Origin: a phage
Sequence record: MZ956763.1
Length of the DNA stretch: 64,000 nt
Strand: one strand, 5' to 3'
Shown piece after piece: positions 13,281 through 60,323 of the stretch; positions within the stretch are counted from its first letter, which is position 1, and the number at the start of each line of letters is the position of its first letter. Both the position numbers and the translations under genes were made by a program. The notes below the pieces were generated by a model, which did not search any database, was not told the DNA's origin, and saw only the letters and a program-made list of their open reading frames with translations.

Positions 13281-13529
13281 ATGTTTAACAAAAGTAAAGC
13301 TGTGAGTCATGTAGCAAAAGTTGACAGCAAGATTGAAGAACTTGAGCGCCTTCTTGCAAATGCCAGAGAGTCAATAATTAAAGAAGTTGAAGCTGTTGAA
13401 TCTCAAATGCAGCACCTAATGCTTAAACGCCAAGAGCTACGTGAGCATCTGGAATATATTGAAACACGAGAGCTAAAGGTTAACAGATATTTTAAGGAGT
13501 CCGAATGTTTAACTCAAGAGAATCAGTAA
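13281..13529 (+). CDS. hypothetical coiled-coil protein
   Basis: ORF; start moved to ATG with GAGAGA SD. Confidence 0.4.
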   Translation: MFNKSKAVSHVAKVDSKIEELERLLANARESIIKEVEAVESQMQHLMLKRQELREHLEYIETRELKVNRYFKESECLTQENQ

Positions 13530-54968: not shown

Positions 54969-55087
54969 TGTTCTACATAGAAACGAAACGAGAGCTTTTC
55001 TAAGATACTGAAAAATATTTTAAAAAAGTTCTTGACAATCACTAAAAAATAATGTTAAAGTGGTTACATAGAGTTTGAAAAGTTTAT

Positions 55088-55164
55088 CTCTGTTTAGCTC
55101 AGCTTGGTAGAGCGTTCCGTTTGGGGCGGTAAGGCCGGAGGTTCAAGTCCTCCAACAGAGACCA
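55088..55164 (+). tRNA. tRNA-Pro(TGG)
   Basis: manual fold: 7-bp acceptor, D-arm TAGCTCAGCTTGGTAGAGC, anticodon loop TTTGGGG, T-loop TTCAAGT, CCA encoded. Confidence 0.65.
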
Positions 55165-55171
55165 AATTAAT

Positions 55172-55249
55172 GTTCCAGTAGACAAAATGGTAAAGTCACC
55201 ACTCTTTCAAAGTGGATATCTGAGGGTTCAAATCCCTTCTGGAACGCCA
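55172..55249 (+). tRNA. tRNA-Glu(TTC)
   Basis: manual fold: acceptor GTTCCAG/CTGGAAC, anticodon stem CCACT/AGTGG, loop CTTTCAA. Confidence 0.6.
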
Positions 55250-55254
55250 GTTTT

Positions 55255-55330
55255 GACAGAAGACCAATTACAGCAAACTTAATCTTATTCATCTGAAGGT
55301 AAATCGGACAAAGAAGAGATTTGGTCTGGT
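55255..55330 (+). ncRNA. stem-loop element A of a 5-member family
   Basis: 5' CAGAAGACCAATTACAGCAA pairs with 3' TTGGTCTGG; between tRNA-Glu and tRNA-Met. Confidence 0.4.
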
Positions 55331-55340
55331 CATTAAGAAT

Positions 55341-55417
55341 TGCGGGTATAGAGAAAGGGCGTCTCACATGTCTCATTAGCATGGTATCGGCAGGTTCGAC
55401 TCCTGCACCCGCCTCCA
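55341..55417 (+). tRNA. tRNA-Met(CAT), possibly initiator (1-72 mismatch)
   Basis: anticodon stem CATGT/GCATG, loop CTCATTA; T-arm GCAGG-TTCGACT-CCTGC; position 1 unpaired. Confidence 0.5.
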
Positions 55418-55420
55418 AAT

Positions 55421-55488
55421 TTACAGAAGACCGTTTACAGCAATATTTATTAAATTTTTAGCGGAAAAATTGAAAGATACGGTCTGGT
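55421..55488 (+). ncRNA. stem-loop element B
   Basis: 5' CAGAAGACCGTTTACAGCAA, 3' ACGGTCTGG; internal hairpin AATTTTTAGCGGAAAAATT. Confidence 0.4.
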
Positions 55489-55500
55489 AATACTAAACAT

Positions 55501-55577
55501 GGTTAGGAAGCACATAAGGTATGTGCGGTCGCCTGTTAAGCGAATGGCACAGGGTTCGAATCCCTGACTAACCGCCA
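55501..55577 (+). tRNA. tRNA-Asn(GTT)
   Basis: D-stem GCAC/GTGC, anticodon loop CTGTTAA, T-loop TTCGAAT. Confidence 0.65.
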
Positions 55578-55646
55578 AATTTAGGAGAGAAGCGATTGCT
55601 CACCGATTTGTAAGGTGCAAGTCCTTAGCCTGAATAGAAATTAAAT

Positions 55647-55734
55647 GTGTCGTTATCCCGTAGATGGTAGCGGTGGGGACTGTAAATCCCTTGTCATTGA
55701 GACTCGGTAGGTTCGACTCCTACACGGCACACCA
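55647..55734 (+). tRNA. tRNA-Tyr(GTA), long variable arm
   Basis: 88 nt; anticodon stem GGGGA/TCCCT, loop CTGTAAA; acceptor GTGTCGT/ACGGCAC. Confidence 0.55.
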
Positions 55735-55739
55735 ATAAA

Positions 55740-55817
55740 GGCTATGTAGTTTAATAGGGTTAAAATACTCCCCTGTCACGGGAGATGATGTGAGTTCAAG
55801 TCTCATCGTAGCCGCCA
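55740..55817 (+). tRNA. tRNA-Asp(GTC)
   Basis: acceptor GGCTATG/CGTAGCC, anticodon stem CTCCC/GGGAG, loop CTGTCAC. Confidence 0.65.
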
Positions 55818-55902
55818 AATTATAATAAGTATTTCAAAATGATGTTTTGAGAGGGCTATTTAGCCCCTCCCTTAAAGAGTTCTTACGAGTATTCTTTAAA
55901 GG

Positions 55903-55979
55903 AGCAGAAGACCAAATACAGCAAGTTACTTAAAATTTCAAGCCAATTTAATTTTGAAAAATTTAAAACTTGGTCTGGC
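55903..55979 (+). ncRNA. stem-loop element C
   Basis: 5' CAGAAGACCAAATACAGCAA, 3' TTGGTCTGG. Confidence 0.4.
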
Positions 55980-55988
55980 TCAACAAAT

Positions 55989-56123
55989 TTACAGAAGACC
56001 GTTTACAGCAAAACTTAAACAATCTATTTCTCGGTAAAGAAAAGGAGAAGGTTCGATTCCTTCACTCGGCAGATGTCGAGTTGGTGTAATGGTAGCACTT
56101 AAGATGGTAAACAACGGTCTGGT
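55989..56123 (+). ncRNA. Y-RNA-like (YrlA-type) tRNA-mimic element D
   Basis: terminal stem AGACCGTT/AACGGTCT encloses T-arm-like GAAGG-TTCGATT-CCTTC, acceptor-like hairpin ACTCGGC-AGAT-GTCGAGT and D-arm-like GTG-TAATGGTAG-CAC, i.e. tRNA modules in permuted order with no anticodon arm. Confidence 0.45.
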
Positions 56124-56271
56124 AATTATCTTTGTAGATAAGTTATTAAGCTTACCTGTGAGTATGCGACCACAAAGGGTGAAAGGGTAAATTCTAGATT
56201 TAAACCCAAAAAGGCACATCGCTACAGACCTTAAGCAAGTCTGGGTAGCTTATCTACAAAGATAATTTAAT

Positions 56272-56347
56272 GGAAGTGTAGCAGAATGGTGATGCGGCAG
56301 ACTTTTAATCTGACAGGCGATGGGTTCGAATCCCTCCACTTCTACCA
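56272..56347 (+). tRNA. tRNA-Lys(TTT)
   Basis: anticodon loop CTTTTAA; acceptor GGAAGTG/CACTTCT; weak T-stem. Confidence 0.55.
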
Positions 56348-56351
56348 AAAT

Positions 56352-56428
56352 GGTTCAGTCGCAGATAAGGTAATGCAAGGGTTTCATAAGCCCTATGAAT
56401 GTGGGTTCGATTCCCATCTGAACCTCCA
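56352..56428 (+). tRNA. tRNA-Met or Ile2 (CAT)
   Basis: acceptor GGTTCAG/CTGAACC; anticodon stem AGGGT/GCCCT, loop TTCATAA. Confidence 0.55.
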
Positions 56429-56430
56429 AT

Positions 56431-56505
56431 TGTGGGTTAGCATAAATGGTAATGCAAACGGCTGATAACCGTTAGAAGAGGGTTCGATACCCTCACCTAC
56501 AACCA
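56431..56505 (+). tRNA. tRNA-Ile(GAT)
   Basis: anticodon stem AACGG/CCGTT, loop CTGATAA; T-arm GAGGG-TTCGATA-CCCTC. Confidence 0.6.
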
Positions 56506-56520
56506 ATTTCAATAGAGTTG

Positions 56521-56549
56521 TTGACATTGAGATGTGACTACTTTATAGT
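56521..56549 (+). promoter_or_regulatory. sigma70-like promoter inside tRNA cluster
   Basis: TTGACA, 17 bp, TATAGT. Confidence 0.55.
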
Positions 56550-56842
56550 AACTAAAATACTTCACAATATGTATAATTCAAACACCAATACATGAGCGTT
56601 AGACGTAACACAATGTGGGGAAATTTGTTGTACATATTCTGAATAGTTTTCGTTGCGTAGCGTCTATTTTGCAAATTTAAAATAAATGCAAACGACAATG
56701 TTTTTCTGGCAGTAGCTTGATAGGCTAAACACCAGTGAGGTCTTCCAATCCCTCATCAAAGAATTTGGCGTACTCGCCCACGGTATGATTAATAAGGTGG
56801 GCATCTTTAAGGGCTTTCTAAGAGAGTCTTTAAAGATAATTA

Positions 56843-56924
56843 CGGGGCGTATCTCAGCGGTCTTCTAAACCGCCGTTAACCGAGTAAGTGGAGTATGCGG
56901 GTTCGAGTCCTGCCGCCTCGACCA
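56843..56924 (+). tRNA. atypical tRNA-like gene, possibly tRNA-Arg(TCT)
   Basis: good acceptor (CGGGGCG/CGCCTCG), T-arm and a perfect hairpin GCGGT-CTTCTAA-ACCGC, but no canonical D-arm and a 23-nt region before the T-arm. Confidence 0.3.
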
Positions 56925-57067
56925 ATTTAGTTAGCAGATTACTTAGACGACCTAAGCGGGTCTTCCTGTAGGGAGGTGGTCTGTATCTCATGTTTTCCAG
57001 AACATGTAAATAATCTGAGAAGGGGCTTTACAGTGTTGAGATAATACGGTAAGCTTCGAATTATAGT

Positions 57068-57150
57068 GTGGGACGATGTTAAGACTCTAAGGCATGAGCA
57101 ACGGCCTCCAAAACCGTTTCAAAGGGGTTCAACTCCTCCGTCCCATGCCA
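57068..57150 (+). tRNA. atypical tRNA-like gene, possibly tRNA-Trp(CCA)
   Basis: acceptor GTGGGAC/GTCCCAT, T-loop TTCAACT, anticodon-like loop CTCCAAA on stem ACGG/CCGT; D region about 7-8 nt too long. Confidence 0.3.
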
Positions 57151-57163
57151 AAGTCTTATTAGG

Positions 57164-57251
57164 GGTAGGTAGCGGCTAATGGCAGCCAAACAGTCTTGAA
57201 AACTGTTGCCACTGTAGAGATACGGTGAGGGTTCGACTCCTTTACTTACCG
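57164..57251 (+). tRNA. tRNA-Ser(TGA), long variable arm
   Basis: anticodon stem ACAGT/ACTGT, loop CTTGAAA; D-loop TAATGGCA; CCA not encoded. Confidence 0.55.
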
Positions 57252-57407
57252 CCTAATAAGATTTAAAGCCAAGCTTCATTCGGATGTCGCTTTGGTATCC
57301 CGCGTGTATTGTCGTACACACTGATAAAACACCTAGTAGGTGTCACGGAGAAGAGATAATATCAAGCTCTCCAAAGGTTCTAGTCACCGGATTAAACAAG
57401 ACTATGC

Positions 57408-57429
57408 AAAGACCTTTTTAGGTCTTTTT
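57408..57429 (+). terminator. intrinsic terminator inside tRNA cluster
   Basis: AAGACCTTTTTAGGTCTTTTT. Confidence 0.5.
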
Positions 57430-57508
57430 AGAGGGCTTCTAAGGTTATTACAGCTTGTTGTGGAACCTTGTTGCTTAGGTTCTTAGAAGTTCTCTAAAAA
57501 GATTTAAT

Positions 57509-57586
57509 GGGAGATTGACGGTAATTGGTAAACCTACCATCCTTAGAAGTTGGTGTTTGAGGGTTCGAATCCCTTGTCTCCTACCA
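57509..57586 (+). tRNA. tRNA-Leu(TAG), short variable loop
   Basis: anticodon loop CTTAGAA; A73 discriminator; T-arm GAGGG-TTCGAAT-CCCTT. Confidence 0.5.
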
Positions 57587-57593
57587 AATTAAT

Positions 57594-57669
57594 GCAGGTG
57601 TAGCAAAATGGTTATGCGGCTGACTCTTAATCAGTAAGACGATGGGTTCAATTCCCTCCACCTGTACCA
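57594..57669 (+). tRNA. tRNA-Lys(CTT)
   Basis: same scaffold as tRNA-Lys(TTT); anticodon loop CTCTTAA. Confidence 0.55.
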
Positions 57670-57675
57670 GACATT

Positions 57676-57751
57676 GGGGTCATAGTTTATATGGTTAAAA
57701 TTCGAGTTTTGCAAACTTGGGAACTGAGTTCAATTCTCAGTGACTCCACCA
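57676..57751 (+). tRNA. tRNA-Ala(TGC)
   Basis: anticodon loop TTTGCAA; T-arm CTGAG-TTCAATT-CTCAG. Confidence 0.6.
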
Positions 57752-57757
57752 ATTAGT

Positions 57758-57832
57758 GCATCCATAGTTTAAACGGGAAAATTACAGTCTTCCAAACTGA
57801 GGTTGAGGGTTCGATTCCCTCTGGATGCTCCA
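57758..57832 (+). tRNA. tRNA-Gly(TCC)
   Basis: perfect acceptor GCATCCA/TGGATGC; anticodon loop CTTCCAA. Confidence 0.6.
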
Positions 57833-57839
57833 AATTAAT

Positions 57840-57915
57840 GCTCCTATCGTATAATAGGCTATTACGGTTGCCTTGTAAGCAACTTATCAGGGTTCGAATC
57901 CTTGTGGGAGCACCA
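57840..57915 (+). tRNA. tRNA-Thr(TGT)
   Basis: anticodon stem GTTGC/GCAAC, loop CTTGTAA. Confidence 0.65.
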
Positions 57916-57916
57916 A

Positions 57917-58006
57917 TTCAGAGGTCAAGTGAAAGACCGCTGGTGTCAACTGAAGACCGTAACAAATTCCACGGAGTTGAGTTAGCGGCACAACTTCAGA
58001 CCTCTT
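57917..58006 (+). ncRNA. stem-loop element E (related to A-D)
   Basis: outer stem AGAGGTC/GACCTCT; contains GAAGACCGTAACAAA resembling the family 5' motif. Confidence 0.3.
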
Positions 58007-58010
58007 TCAC

Positions 58011-58085
58011 ACTCGCTTAGTTTATATGGTAAAACACCACCCTTACAAGATGAAGAAAAAGGTTCAAGTCCTTTAGTGAGTACCA
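58011..58085 (+). tRNA. tRNA-Val(TAC)
   Basis: acceptor ACTCGCT/AGTGAGT, D-stem GTTT/AAAC, T-arm AAAGG-TTCAAGT-CCTTT, anticodon loop CTTACAA on a weak stem. Confidence 0.45.
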
Positions 58086-58086
58086 T

Positions 58087-58164
58087 GTTCCAGTATCCCA
58101 ATTGGCAGAGGATGCAAGCTCAAACCTTGTATTAGTGACGGTTCGAATCCGTCTTGGAACACCA
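58087..58164 (+). tRNA. tRNA-Leu(CAA), short variable loop
   Basis: Leu-like D-loop CAATTGGCAGA; anticodon loop CTCAAAC; A73. Confidence 0.5.
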
Positions 58165-58183
58165 ATTTTAAGAGGCTATTTAG

Positions 58184-58741
58184 ATGAGATATTTGAAGTA
58201 TGCTTCATGGATTTTCCTAGCTTTACTAGAGCCATTTGCAGCAACCCTATCAGTCATCTTAGCACCTTTCGTAGTTCCATTCTACAGTGAGAAGAAAGGA
58301 CACCTACCTTTTGGATTCAGATGGATGGAGACCTATGACAACCCAATTGATGGTGATGAAGGTCACGTTAAAAGATGGGCTAAGATTAGAAAGATTGGTA
58401 AGCTGGGTGTCTACATGCAGAGAGTTGGATGGCTCTGGAGAAACAAAGCTTATAACTTCTCTTACCATGTATTAGGAAGAGATGTAAAAGATGTTACTAA
58501 GTGGAAAGGTAATATCAACGTAAGTTCTGACCCTGAAGATAATCAGACAGGTTATCTCCTAATGTGGAACAACAATGCTTGGGGATTATTCGCTTTTATT
58601 CCGTCAATTAAAATCTTTGGTAAACAGTTTTACTGGAGAATTTATGTTGGATGGAAACTAAAAAGTGTTGTCCCAGAAGAAAGAGCATTCTCAAGGGAAA
58701 GAGTTATGTTGGCATTCTTTATTCATCCACTGAGAAAGTAA
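58184..58741 (+). CDS. hypothetical membrane protein embedded in tRNA cluster
   Basis: 185 aa ORF starting just after a tRNA; N-terminal hydrophobic segment. Confidence 0.5.
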   Translation: MRYLKYASWIFLALLEPFAATLSVILAPFVVPFYSEKKGHLPFGFRWMETYDNPIDGDEGHVKRWAKIRKIGKLGVYMQRVGWLWRNKAYNFSYHVLGRDVKDVTKWKGNINVSSDPEDNQTGYLLMWNNNAWGLFAFIPSIKIFGKQFYWRIYVGWKLKSVVPEERAFSRERVMLAFFIHPLRK

Positions 58742-58749
58742 AGATTTAA

Positions 58750-58825
58750 AGGGGATTAGTTTACAAGGTTAAAACCTCGGTCTTTGAAATCGAAGAAGTT
58801 GGTTCAATTCCAACATCCCCAGCCA
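58750..58825 (+). tRNA. tRNA-Gln(TTG)
   Basis: D-stem GTTT/AAAC; anticodon loop CTTTGAA; T-arm GTTGG-TTCAATT-CCAAC. Confidence 0.55.
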
Positions 58826-58827
58826 AT

Positions 58828-58906
58828 GCTCCATTACTCCAATTGGCAGAGAGGCCAGACTTAAAATCTGTGTTATGTATCGGTTCGAATCCGATATGGA
58901 GTACCA
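58828..58906 (+). tRNA. tRNA-Leu(TAA), short variable loop
   Basis: D-arm CTC-CAATTGGCAGA-GAG; anticodon loop CTTAAAA; A73. Confidence 0.5.
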
Positions 58907-58911
58907 ATTTT

Positions 58912-58987
58912 AGCGGTATAGCATAATTGGCAATGCAACAGTCTCTGAAGCTGTCCTATTAAGGTTCAAATCCTTATACCGCTGCCA
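58912..58987 (+). tRNA. tRNA-Gln(CTG)
   Basis: perfect acceptor AGCGGTA/TACCGCT; anticodon loop CTCTGAA. Confidence 0.6.
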
Positions 58988-59018
58988 CTTCTAAGGGTTC
59001 TTACGAGAGTCCTTAAAT

Positions 59019-59094
59019 GTGGCCTTATCATAAATGGTAATGACCCATGCTGTGAACATGGTCTATACGGGTTCAAATCCCGTAGGTCACCCCA
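59019..59094 (+). tRNA. tRNA-His(GTG)
   Basis: anticodon stem CCATG/CATGG, loop CTGTGAA; C73 discriminator. Confidence 0.65.
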
Positions 59095-59099
59095 ATTTA

Positions 59100-59177
59100 T
59101 AGTCCAAGTAGCTTATATGGTTAAAGCGCGTGTCTGAAAAACATGAGAAGAGGGTTCAAATCCCACTGGACTACCAA
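59100..59177 (+). tRNA. tRNA-Phe(GAA)
   Basis: perfect acceptor TAGTCCA/TGGACTA; anticodon stem CGTGT/ACATG, loop CTGAAAA; 3' end reads CAA. Confidence 0.5.
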
Positions 59178-59192
59178 TTTCAAAGGTGCTTA

Positions 59193-59927
59193 ATGAAAGA
59201 GATGACAGAACAAGGTAAGGAGATTTTTAATCTCTTAAAAACCGGTAAAGGGTTTTCTAACCCACTTATTACTGGTGCAGCAGTTCTCGGTGGAACCGTA
59301 GCTGCCTCTACATCACTTGTAAGCTCTATTAGCTCTGTAACAGACCCTACAATGAATGAGAAACTTGTTGCTGCTGGACTTACAACAGTCCTTCTAAACA
59401 GCTTTACAACAAGCCTGACAAGCACTACAGCAACTACTAAGACCCTAACAGACTATGGTCAAAAGTCTATTGATGAGTTTTCATCACGTATGCAGGTAGC
59501 AAAGGGATACTCCAATGTTATGGGTGCAGCAGGAGAACAAGTTGGTTGTACACCGTTCAGTGGTATTATGGGTGTTGCTACAGAATATGGTCAAAAAGCT
59601 ATTGATACGATTAACAGTACACTAGAGAGTGTTAACGATGTATTAAGTGACTTACAAGACGCTATTGACAAGGGTCTTGATACTGTTTCTGATTTAGCTA
59701 ACCAAGCTGTCAGTAAGATTAATGAAGGTATCTCAAAGATTACAGCTTATGCAGATGAAGTTGTGCAGATGATTGAAGAAGAAGCTGCCCTTATTGCAGA
59801 GTACCTTAAAACGAATATCAATGGGTTCTTAGCAGGTATCTTACCAGACTGGTTTGATGATGCTTGTAAAACTGGTGTGATTGACACTATTGCAACACCA
59901 GAAATGAAGAACGCATTACAGAAATAA
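59193..59927 (+). CDS. hypothetical Ser/Thr-rich protein
   Basis: start set at ATG after tRNA-Phe (MKEMTEQ); track ORF start 59130 would overlap the tRNA. Confidence 0.5.
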   Translation: MKEMTEQGKEIFNLLKTGKGFSNPLITGAAVLGGTVAASTSLVSSISSVTDPTMNEKLVAAGLTTVLLNSFTTSLTSTTATTKTLTDYGQKSIDEFSSRMQVAKGYSNVMGAAGEQVGCTPFSGIMGVATEYGQKAIDTINSTLESVNDVLSDLQDAIDKGLDTVSDLANQAVSKINEGISKITAYADEVVQMIEEEAALIAEYLKTNINGFLAGILPDWFDDACKTGVIDTIATPEMKNALQK

Positions 59928-59928
59928 T

Positions 59929-60021
59929 GGAAGATTAACCCTAAAAGGTAAGGGAGCAGTTTGCTAAACTGCCAGTAGCTGAGAAATCGGTGTACCAGTT
60001 CAAGTCTGGTATCTTCCTCCA
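59929..60021 (+). tRNA. tRNA-Ser(GCT), long variable arm
   Basis: 93 nt; anticodon stem GCAGT/ACTGC, loop TTGCTAA; T-arm ACCAG-TTCAAGT-CTGGT. Confidence 0.6.
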
Positions 60022-60025
60022 ATTT

Positions 60026-60101
60026 GAATCCGTGACAGAAATGGCTATGTGCCTGTCTGCAAAACAGGTTTATAAGGGTTCGAGTCCCTTCGGATTCTCC
60101 A
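60026..60101 (+). tRNA. tRNA-Cys(GCA)
   Basis: anticodon stem CCTGT/ACAGG, loop CTGCAAA; U73 discriminator. Confidence 0.65.
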
Positions 60102-60199: not shown

Positions 60200-60323
60200 C
60201 AGAGTTATACTTTATAAGAAGACTTATACAGTATGTCTCTGACGTACATTGTGGTTTCTCCTTGACGGTCTCTGTGCCGTCTTTTTTAAGGAGAAACAAA
60301 ATTAATTATTTGGAGAAAACATA

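Follow-up and report, generated by a model that had tools for sequence, protein, structure and literature searches.

The 64,000-nucleotide (nt) stretch of DNA analyzed here (sequence record MZ956763.1; hereafter, the window) comes from a Felix O1-like phage and carries, inside its transfer RNA (tRNA) cluster, two loci, A and B, that are probably both working tRNA genes of the phage tRNA operon, A a tRNA-Arg(UCU) with a rewired core and B a tRNA-Trp(CCA). Locus A belongs to a large and apparently undescribed class of phage tRNAs in which the D arm is partly moved across the anticodon arm. The observations on which this proposal is based are conservation, a secondary structure defined by covariation, identity-element statistics, synteny and codon usage, and from them we infer processing, charging and decoding.

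At 99% identity, the region matches Salmonella phage Mushroom and other genomes of Felixounavirus. ARAGORN in standard mode called 24 tRNAs at 55088-60101 of the window, all on the plus strand and covering 18 amino acids, which reproduces the hand folding of the initial annotation, where Arg and Trp were the only two amino acids missing. No Arg or Trp tRNA was called in the window, and no tRNA at all in the 23.8 kb of the Mushroom genome outside the window span, so that the absence of canonical genes for these two amino acids elsewhere held up. A scan of both strands for a T arm followed by the strand closing a 7-base-pair (bp) acceptor stem, which recovers known tRNAs, left exactly two modules of the cluster unassigned (56843-56921 and 57068-57147), both of them on the plus strand like the 24 tRNAs called. 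Both have the acceptor stem, T arm and anticodon hairpin described for them in the initial annotation and, in addition, an encoded CCA, and their anticodons and putative synthetase identity elements fit the two missing amino acids that they had been proposed to supply. No open reading frame (ORF) of 50 or more amino acids was found in 56500-57520; a protein-coding reading of this interval was rejected, the ORFs in it being 48 amino acids at most and overlapping the RNA genes. The window has a GC content of 38.8%; in its 51 long ORFs, AGA accounts for 30.5% of Arg codons and 12.3 per 1000 codons; in E. coli and Salmonella it is among the rarest codons.

From 5' to 3', locus A consists of the acceptor strand, U-A-U, CUC-A, the anticodon arm, the linker CGUUAACC, GAG-U-AAGUGG-A-GUA-U, the T arm, the acceptor 3' strand, A73 and CCA (Table 1). 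The D hairpin of the cloverleaf is absent between position 9 and the anticodon arm, where UAU-CUC-A alone is found, and a D-loop-like segment, UAAGUGGAGUA, with G18 G19 A20, lies 3' of the CUC/GAG helix, here called helix X. The anticodon loop has 7 nt with U33 and a purine at 37 and is closed by a 5-bp stem as in canonical tRNA. The description of this locus in the initial annotation as having no proper D arm and 23 nt before the T arm was therefore accurate for the hairpin and the count; a D stem does exist, with its strands flanking the anticodon arm. In standard numbering, CUC-A would represent positions 23-25 and 26, GAG-U positions 10-13, and the final U the place of 48. Judged from sequence and order, AAGUGGAGUA is the D loop (A14, A15, G18, G19, A20 ... 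A21) and the block 10-21 is shifted from the 5' to the 3' side of the anticodon arm.

Restoration of the cloverleaf order in silico supports the transposition of this block. When GAG-U-AAGUGGAGUA was moved between A9 and U-CUC, default ARAGORN, which makes no call on the native sequence, reported an 82-nt canonical tRNA-Arg(tct) whose D stem is GAGU/UCUC. The moved block also resembles GUGU-AAAGGACA, the D arm that the sister phage Arno162 has in its canonical tRNA-Arg(UCU). Native locus A received no ARAGORN call with the standard, -i, -ps, -ps80, -mt, -mtx or -mtd settings; the relaxed and organellar modes suggested in the initial annotation recovered B, as Trp(cca), and never A. Searched against Rfam, A gave no RF00005 hit at E-values up to 10, its best clan hit being transfer-messenger RNA (tmRNA) at 22 bits, below the gathering threshold, and no family in Rfam 15 matches the rewired structure. 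A tmRNA or permuted tmRNA spanning 56448-56924 was considered and rejected, as the Rfam scores of 16-26 bits are far below gathering and partly due to the neighboring tRNA-Ile. Locus A scores 100.6 bits against its own covariance model, R1, built from the alignment of 38 homologues of the subtype to which it belongs (A1); true members score 62-102 bits and canonical tRNAs at most 31 bits.

Locus A was found by blastn in 263 phage records, including homologues of 83-90% identity in unrelated groups outside Felixounavirus, namely jumbo Asteriusvirus (7t3, PBECO4, 121Q-like), T5-like Klebsiella phages (Roth50, Spivey), Vequintavirinae (KB57, Mydo, A73), Justusliebigvirus (phi92, PATM) and a Vibrio phage. 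Where these copies carry any annotation, it is 'tRNA-OTHER', 'tRNA-TERM', 'tRNA-Undet' or 'hypothetical protein'. Dozens of further copies came from pattern scans of IMG/VR, and an A1-specific pattern matched two contigs from metagenome-assembled genomes in a set of one genome each from 185,579 bacterial and archaeal species. As a side observation, Klebsiella phage Roth50 has a second 'tRNA-OTHER' (L002:120-204), whose T arm looks canonical and whose anticodon region contains a long GC-rich insert.

In the 38 distinct A1 sequences the loops and connectors are nearly invariant and the stems variable. The proposed structure is paired in 98.6% of pair cells, and 15 of its 20 pairs have changed in both partners; these values were not attained in any of 500 shuffles, and sliding the partner strand by 1-3 columns reduced pairing to 35-46%. 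Helix X occurs as CUC/GAG, as CAC/GUG (Vibrio phage, L057) and as CGC/GCG (L011, L032). Two competing pairings were rejected: UAUCUCA/UGGAGUA, which uses the second GAG, because in the variants of the Vibrio phage, L011, L032 and L057 it is the first GAG, not the second, that changes together with CUC; and a YCG/UGG mini-hairpin proposed by RNAalifold, which shows no compensatory change and cannot form in a second subtype, A2.

The rewired class was defined by the order acceptor, UAU, 3-nt strand, N, anticodon arm, linker, complementary 3-nt strand, U-AAYUGG-N20...AU, T arm and acceptor, a layout found in locus A both by a generic parse and by model R1. Relaxed patterns retrieved further subtypes that share this connectivity and have other tails after GG and other linkers (NGAAA, AGCC, UAA or similar), bringing the class to at least 168 distinct sequences. 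The first scan with a motif that left the anticodon free gave tRNA-like matches with UCU or CCU only, and the A1 loops recovered by anticodon-free scans are CUUCUAA or CUUCUAC (UCU) and, once, UUCCUAA (CCU). Three pooled scans, two of which fixed nothing beyond the connector, helix X and the first part of the D-loop motif, the third adding the CUUCUAA loop, yielded 69 distinct copies, all with Arg anticodons (UCU 61, CCU 5, ACG 3); A follows GG in every one of them, as the pattern itself demanded GGA. A stricter, motif-free architectural search of all collected loci returned 39 matches, likewise with Arg anticodons only. The 'Arg(tct)' calls made by ARAGORN in L011 and L024 were discarded as rewired genes misfolded with flanking sequence.

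The scan GAAANNNTAANNGGNNACATGNNNNTTCNA, which leaves the helix, position 20 and the anticodon free and specifies 18 bases, so that by a rough estimate few chance matches are expected, identified at least 120 loci, with 108 distinct 77-nt A2-type sequences among the matches listed. These 108, which had passed no pairing filter, are 93% paired in the proposed structure compared with 38-50% when shifted, and helix X is paired in 100% of them at all three pairs, with 2 to 5 pair types each. Among the matches listed, 33 are of Arg type (ACG 15, UCU 14, CCU 4) and have A20 in 33/33 with G, A or U as discriminator, and 75 are of Ile type (UAU 58, GAU 11, CAU 6) and have U20 in 74/75 and A73 in 75/75. 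In bacteria the Arg identity set comprises A20, C35, U/G36 and A/G73, and the Ile set includes U20 and A73 (PMC9976931), and the pattern of position 20 and discriminator in the rewired copies accords with both. Because position 20 tracks the anticodon as in these identity sets, the relocated segment appears to act as a true D loop that the cognate synthetase reads, which we regard as the strongest argument for charging; Arg and Ile, the only anticodon types among the copies found, are two amino acids whose synthetases read D-loop position 20. Locus A itself fits the Arg set with UGG-A at 56889-56892, UCU at 56864-56866 and A73 at 56921.

Class members extend to phages of other hosts. In about 77 Streptomyces phages, near 74 kb, a rewired Ile(GAU) gene, unannotated in every record listed, lies beside a tRNA nucleotidyltransferase gene, together with Arg(CCU) and a 'tRNA-OTHER'; in phage Mildred21, for example, the rewired tRNA-Ile(GAU) (L393:395-471; U20, A73) is immediately downstream of the nucleotidyltransferase gene. 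The Microbacterium phage Zooman carries a member, and blastn matches point to probable members in a Mesorhizobium phage and in crAss-like phages (cr130_1, Kehishuvirus). Some phage contigs hold two rewired genes next to each other (L192:12999-13077 and 13348-13426; L386; L426; L511), for example Arg(CCU) with a divergent Arg(UCU), or Ile(GAU) with Ile(UAU).

Comparison with related phages, as the initial annotation had suggested, showed that A occupies the place of a canonical gene. In Mooglevirus (Sf17, Mijalis, Sf14, Sf16), Pectobacterium phage Arno162 and Wc4-1, a canonical tRNA-Arg(UCU) is located between tRNA-Ile and B, A is absent, and the canonical gene is flanked by sequence matching that around A in the window. 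The loci with 10 or more canonical tRNAs comprise 27 with a rewired UCU gene and no canonical Arg(tct), one with both, nine with the canonical gene only and three with neither, for a Fisher p of 7e-6, computed over loci that are related and were gathered with family-derived patterns. These findings suggest that A stands in for canonical tRNA-Arg(UCU). In Shigella phage Sf17 we also observed a 121-nt element (L063:1228-1348) between the canonical tRNA-Arg and B, the place of A in the window, with a 7-bp acceptor (GGTCAAG/CTTGACT), a T arm (GTAGG-TTCGACT-CCTAC), G73 and an encoded CCA around an 80-nt middle that contains CGAGTAAGT- and CGTTAAG-like motifs and does not match model R1.

Locus B was found in 236 records, essentially all of them Felix O1-type phages (Felixounavirus, Mooglevirus) or Pectobacterium Ounavirinae, and is annotated as a tRNA in none of the match rows inspected. 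It has the acceptor GUGGGAC/GUCCCAU, the anticodon loop CUCCAAA and a variable region of 4-5 nt, and its arms follow the cloverleaf order with covarying stems; the departure from a canonical tRNA is in the connector, where seven extra nucleotides precede the D stem, in line with the extra nucleotides that the initial annotation had placed in the D region. Seven variants are paired in 98.6% of cells, with six pairs changed on both sides and none in slid controls; the changing pairs are D-stem pair 12-23 (U-A/A-U), four pairs of the anticodon helix including 26-44, and T-stem pair 50-64 (G-C/U-A). A pair between G57075 and C57139 is possible and would lengthen the acceptor to 8 bp and shorten the T stem to 4 bp; it is present in the minimum-free-energy fold, and both nucleotides are invariant, so that they yield no covariation signal. 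Anticodon CCA, G73 and the encoded CCA are likewise invariant, and the first acceptor pair is A1-U72 in most relatives and G1.U72 in the window. Recognition of tRNA-Trp depends on C34 C35 A36, on G73, a determinant in E. coli, and on the first acceptor pair, A1-U72 in E. coli (PMC9976931), and B matches this bacterial set.

ARAGORN made no call at B in standard mode or even at -ps85, called Trp(cca) in its metazoan-mitochondrial mode (-mt), and in bacterial mode called tRNA-Trp at 95% of the default threshold (-ps95) once any 5-7 nt of the connector region were deleted. The best Rfam hit of B is tRNA-Sec (RF01852) at 23 bits, compared with a gathering threshold of 47; this family calls for a UCA anticodon, a long variable arm and a 6-bp D stem, and the assignment was rejected on the CCA anticodon, the 4-5-nt variable region and the low score. 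Loose patterns for B (GATGTTAAGA...TCCAAA and GGACGATGTTAAGA) gave mostly chance matches, Ounavirinae copies alone remaining after filtering, and an ATG/CAT pseudoknot was dismissed as it is not conserved in Arno162. We consider a tRNA-Trp with a conserved expansion the best reading of B, although its putative adaptor function is less secure than that of A because the family is narrow and has three conserved mismatches. GUUAA occurs in both the A linker (CGUUAACC, 56875-56879) and the B connector (GAUGUUAAG, 57078-57082), in each case immediately before the 5' strand of the D stem and a UAA..GG loop, and is lacking in the other rewired subtypes; it may reflect a shared structural module or a shared origin.

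Table 1. Features of loci A and B and of their surroundings (window coordinates, except where a collected locus is named).
Feature	Position	Strand	Remarks
Locus A, predicted rewired tRNA-Arg(UCU) gene	56843-56924	+	encoded CCA 56922-56924; covariation for all four helices
A acceptor 5' strand CGGGGCG	56843-56849	+	pairs with CGCCTCG 56914-56920; includes G3.U70; 6/7 pairs with double compensatory changes (38 sequences)
A connector U8 A9 U	56850-56852	+	UAU invariant in A2 alignment; putatively positions 8, 9 and 22
A helix X 5' strand CUC	56853-56855	+	corresponds to D-stem 3' strand 23-25; pairs with GAG 56882-56884
A single nucleotide A	56856	+	between helix X and anticodon stem; putative place of position 26
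A anticodon arm GCGGU-CUUCUAA-ACCGC	56857-56873	+	anticodon UCU 56864-56866; all 5 stem pairs covary
A linker CGUUAACC	56874-56881	+	joins anticodon stem to helix X 3' strand; CGUUAAYC kept in subtype A1
A helix X 3' strand GAG	56882-56884	+	corresponds to D-stem 5' strand 10-12; covariation
A relocated D-loop-like segment UAAGUGGAGUAU	56885-56896	+	G18 G19 56890-56891, A20 56892; final AU before T stem
A T arm GCGGG-UUCGAGU-CCUGC	56897-56913	+	5-bp stem, 7-nt TTCRA-type loop; covariation
A acceptor 3' strand and discriminator A73	56914-56921	+	discriminator G/A in 57/69 distinct Arg-type copies
Locus B, predicted tRNA-Trp(CCA) gene with expanded 5' connector	57068-57150	+	encoded CCA 57148-57150
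B connector GAUGUUAAG	57075-57083	+	9 nt, canonical 2 (U8 N9); invariant in 7 variants; 11 nt in Arno162
B D arm ACUC-UAAGGCAU-GAGC	57084-57099	+	pair 12-23 switches U-A/A-U
B A26-U44 and anticodon arm ACGGC-CUCCAAA-ACCGU	57100-57118	+	CCA 57108-57110; C31.A39 mismatch conserved; 4/5 pairs with double changes
B T arm, acceptor 3' strand GUCCCAU and G73	57123-57147	+	pair 50-64 switches G-C/U-A
Near-consensus sigma-70 promoter TTGACA-17-TATAGT	56521-56549	+	11/12 consensus positions; consensus match only; inside cluster, ~300 nt upstream of A
Weak promoter-like site	57036-57064	+	9/12 consensus positions; ends 4 nt before B
Homing-endonuclease-type genes	L001:1613-2131, L002:1598-2107, L010, L017, L035, L041, L198		just downstream of rewired gene
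Homing-endonuclease-type gene	L388:98-445		

In the mechanism that we propose for A, the CUC equivalent of the D-stem 3' strand would follow U8-A9-U and lead through A26 into a normal anticodon arm, after which the D-stem 5' strand GAG and the D loop U-AAGUGG-A20-GUA would run straight into U48 and the T arm. Because its strands flank the anticodon arm, the GAG/CUC helix could still stack on the anticodon stem; the T loop would remain within reach of GG in the relocated D loop; and A20, C35, U36 and A73 would still be offered to arginyl-tRNA synthetase (ArgRS). With its canonical acceptor and T arm and its encoded CCA, the RNA would be expected to be released by RNase P and by trimming of its 3' end. 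Charging by the ArgRS of the host and delivery by EF-Tu would follow, and the tRNA would decode AGA and probably AGG, codons frequent in the phage and rare in its enterobacterial hosts. Locus B would keep the normal order of arms with its conserved 9-nt connector, possibly with an 8-bp acceptor and a 4-bp T stem, and would be charged by TrpRS through CCA and G73. An L shape, processing, aminoacylation and decoding are thus predicted for both RNAs, the three-dimensional equivalence being argued from sequence and connectivity. Such a scheme appears feasible in that a D-armless tRNA is accepted by E. coli HisRS, EF-Tu and the ribosome (PMC11551756).

The closest known relative of A is the canonical tRNA-Arg(UCU) at the syntenic site in Sf17 and Arno162, the type of tRNA that E. 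coli argU encodes. The two share a 7-bp acceptor, a 5-bp T stem with a TTCRA loop, a 5-bp anticodon stem with the loop CUUCUAA, A20 after GG, A/G73 and CCA, and the anticodon arm ACGGUCUUCUAAACCGU is identical in the Sf17 gene and many A1 copies. They differ in that in A the anticodon arm precedes the D-stem 5' strand and D loop, positions 9 and 26 enclose no D hairpin, and a linker into the D-stem strand takes the place of the usual variable loop. The D-armless mitochondrial tRNA-Ser(AGY/UCU) of metazoans likewise lacks a 5'-side D hairpin, has a single extended anticodon limb and is missed by standard finders; mitochondrial D-armless tRNAs have, however, lost the D loop with its GG and need adapted factors (PMC7609411). 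In contrast, A retains a relocated D-stem-like helix, the full D-loop motif (AAYUGGA...A) and a canonical T arm, and would have to function with ordinary bacterial machinery. The circularly permuted tRNA genes of Cyanidioschyzon merolae have whole halves swapped and give a canonical mature tRNA through a circular intermediate. Locus A resembles these genes in a segment order that departs from the cloverleaf (PMC3978253), but only an internal block is swapped (10-21 and 22-47), the acceptor ends are normal, and no processing pathway is needed or evident.

The tRNA-like domain of tmRNA (RF00023), the best Rfam hit of A, shares with it an acceptor and T arm, the lack of a D hairpin and a long-range helix beside the acceptor, whereas A has no mRNA-like domain, pseudoknots or conserved G3.U70, has a genuine 7-nt anticodon loop, and measures 82 nt compared with about 260-400 nt. 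Cloverleaves of the 8/4 and 9/3 'allo-tRNA' type have been reported in bacteria and phages for Ser and His tRNAs (Mukai et al., PMC5389517). B, with its possible 8-bp acceptor and 4-bp T stem (G8-C65, an invariant pair), may resemble the 8/4 form, but it reads Trp, lacks a long variable arm and has 8 unpaired nucleotides between acceptor and D stem. No prior description of either structure was found in the full-text literature, where coverage of subscription journals is thin and an earlier report is possible.

Several observations weigh against the proposal that both loci are working tRNA genes. Expression, end maturation, charging and ribosomal use of A and B are predictions. On the A1 alignment RNAalifold favors the small YCG/UGG hairpin over helix X. 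Window A and 8 of the 38 A1 variants carry G3.U70 (56845 with 56918), the determinant for AlaRS, which makes alanine mischarging of A conceivable. The replacement of canonical genes is not universal, since in Zooman a canonical Arg(acg) lies next to the rewired Arg(ACG) gene and in Yaboi a canonical Ile(gat) is present, and the loci counted were gathered with sequence patterns derived from the family and do not form an unbiased census. For B, the mismatches A10.C25, C31.A39 and A49.C65 are conserved, and the covariation comes from about four independent lineages.

The initial annotation had left four options for the two loci, of which a structurally unusual tRNA (A) and a small insertion (B) are supported. 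That they are pseudogenes, assembly artefacts or chance tRNA-like folds might be argued from their rejection by standard tRNA finders and from a single-sequence folding energy for A no better than shuffled sequence (z = 0.04). Each locus is, however, conserved in over 230 independent phage genomes, where its base pairs change in compensatory fashion, which excludes decay and assembly error, and the presence of both in hundreds of independent assemblies, their invariant loops and identity nucleotides and the at least 168 distinct members of the class of A leave this explanation with hardly any probability. Equally far-fetched is a miniature tmRNA-like or alanine-accepting RNA at A, to which the tmRNA hit with aligned model ends and the G3.U70 of the window copy could point: the 22 bits fall well short of the gathering score of 47, the 82 nt contain no tag reading frame and no pseudoknots, and the ARAGORN tmRNA search finds none. 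G3.U70 was rejected as a conserved alanine identity, as the remaining A1 variants are mostly GC (14) or AU (9) at this pair. B, for its part, might be a tRNA-derived element that is no longer an adaptor, such as a processing signal or a promoter-associated relic, in view of its mismatches and 9-nt connector, the lack of tRNA annotation and the 'promoter' feature that the phage AYO145A record places over the region of 57036-57064. We consider this improbable, as the Trp identity nucleotides are held across Ounavirinae, the D, anticodon and T stems covary, and no other tRNA-Trp was found in the genome.

A and its class could also be tRNA mimics, recognized and perhaps charged by ArgRS but non-decoding, with a role in regulation or in drawing off, as a decoy or sponge, host nucleases or toxins that target tRNA. 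The non-canonical core, whose use by the ribosome is predicted, and the rewired copies beside canonical isoacceptors in some actinophages are compatible with this, as is the finding that phage tRNAs counter abortive-infection tRNases cutting the anticodon stem-loop; in that study, though, the phage tRNA tested replaced the cleaved host tRNA and did not inhibit the nuclease (bioRxiv 10.64898/2026.07.10.737580). Moreover, a decoy needs no joint upkeep of acceptor and T arm, encoded CCA, A/G73 and A20, would not alternate with canonical tRNA-Arg(UCU) at one site in sister phages, and would not explain anticodons limited to the Arg and Ile sets with matching identity nucleotides, so that we judge a mimic unlikely, if slightly less so than a relic at B. 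A more plausible, though still doubtful, refinement of the proposal that A is a fully functional tRNA holds that the topology itself is selected, conferring immunity to homing endonucleases directed at canonical tRNA-Arg genes or resistance of the RNA to a host tRNase. In many unrelated phages the rewired tRNA-Arg is followed within 7-45 nt by the start of a homing-endonuclease-type gene (two types of HNH_3, an HNH and a weak GIY-YIG gene were recorded), behind the canonical tRNA-Arg(TCT) of Sf16, too, an HNH homing endonuclease gene is annotated, and Felix O1 has an HNH gene between A and B; the near-identity of A1 copies in unrelated phage families further suggests horizontal spread. Such genes are, on the other hand, common across phage tRNA clusters, so that the adjacency may be unspecific, no cleavage site is known, and the window has no such gene beside A.

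Other features of the surroundings were recorded in passing. In L023, a gene for a 339-amino-acid RNA ligase (Pfam RNA_ligase, E-value 1e-33, with a PHA02142 OB-fold domain) lies 43 nt downstream of the rewired tRNA-Arg. The cluster of the window starts with a sigma-70-like site at 55032-55061 (10/12 consensus positions), and a terminator-like hairpin at 60264-60281 follows its last tRNA. A canonical tRNA-Arg(ACG) is present in several sister Felixounavirus contigs and in Mooglevirus, where it follows tRNA-Leu(CAA) in Sf17 and Mijalis; in the window, a 585-nt gap (58165-58749) follows tRNA-Leu(CAA), and ARAGORN called no Arg(ACG).

Taken beyond the window, the data incline us modestly towards a widespread and unrecognized class of functional tRNAs in phages of Proteobacteria, Actinobacteria and Bacteroidota, with a permuted core, restricted to Arg and Ile, and used by ordinary bacterial ArgRS or IleRS, EF-Tu and the ribosome. 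If this is true, the Felix O1 family encodes 26 tRNAs for all 20 amino acids, and phage tRNA inventories are undercounted, especially for decoders of AGA and AUA, because ARAGORN misses the genes and records list them as 'tRNA-OTHER', 'Undet', 'TERM' or hypothetical proteins. Analyses of codon adaptation, host range and tRNA-based counter-defence would be affected, the shortfall lying exactly on the decoders of the rare codons AGA and AUA. If functional, the class would amount to a natural experiment on the demands that ArgRS, IleRS, RNase P, EF-Tu and the ribosome make on the tRNA core, and its occurrence in tractable phages (Felix O1, phi92, rV5-like, PBECO4/121Q-like and Streptomyces phages) makes direct testing possible. 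The rewired scaffold may also serve the engineering of orthogonal tRNAs.

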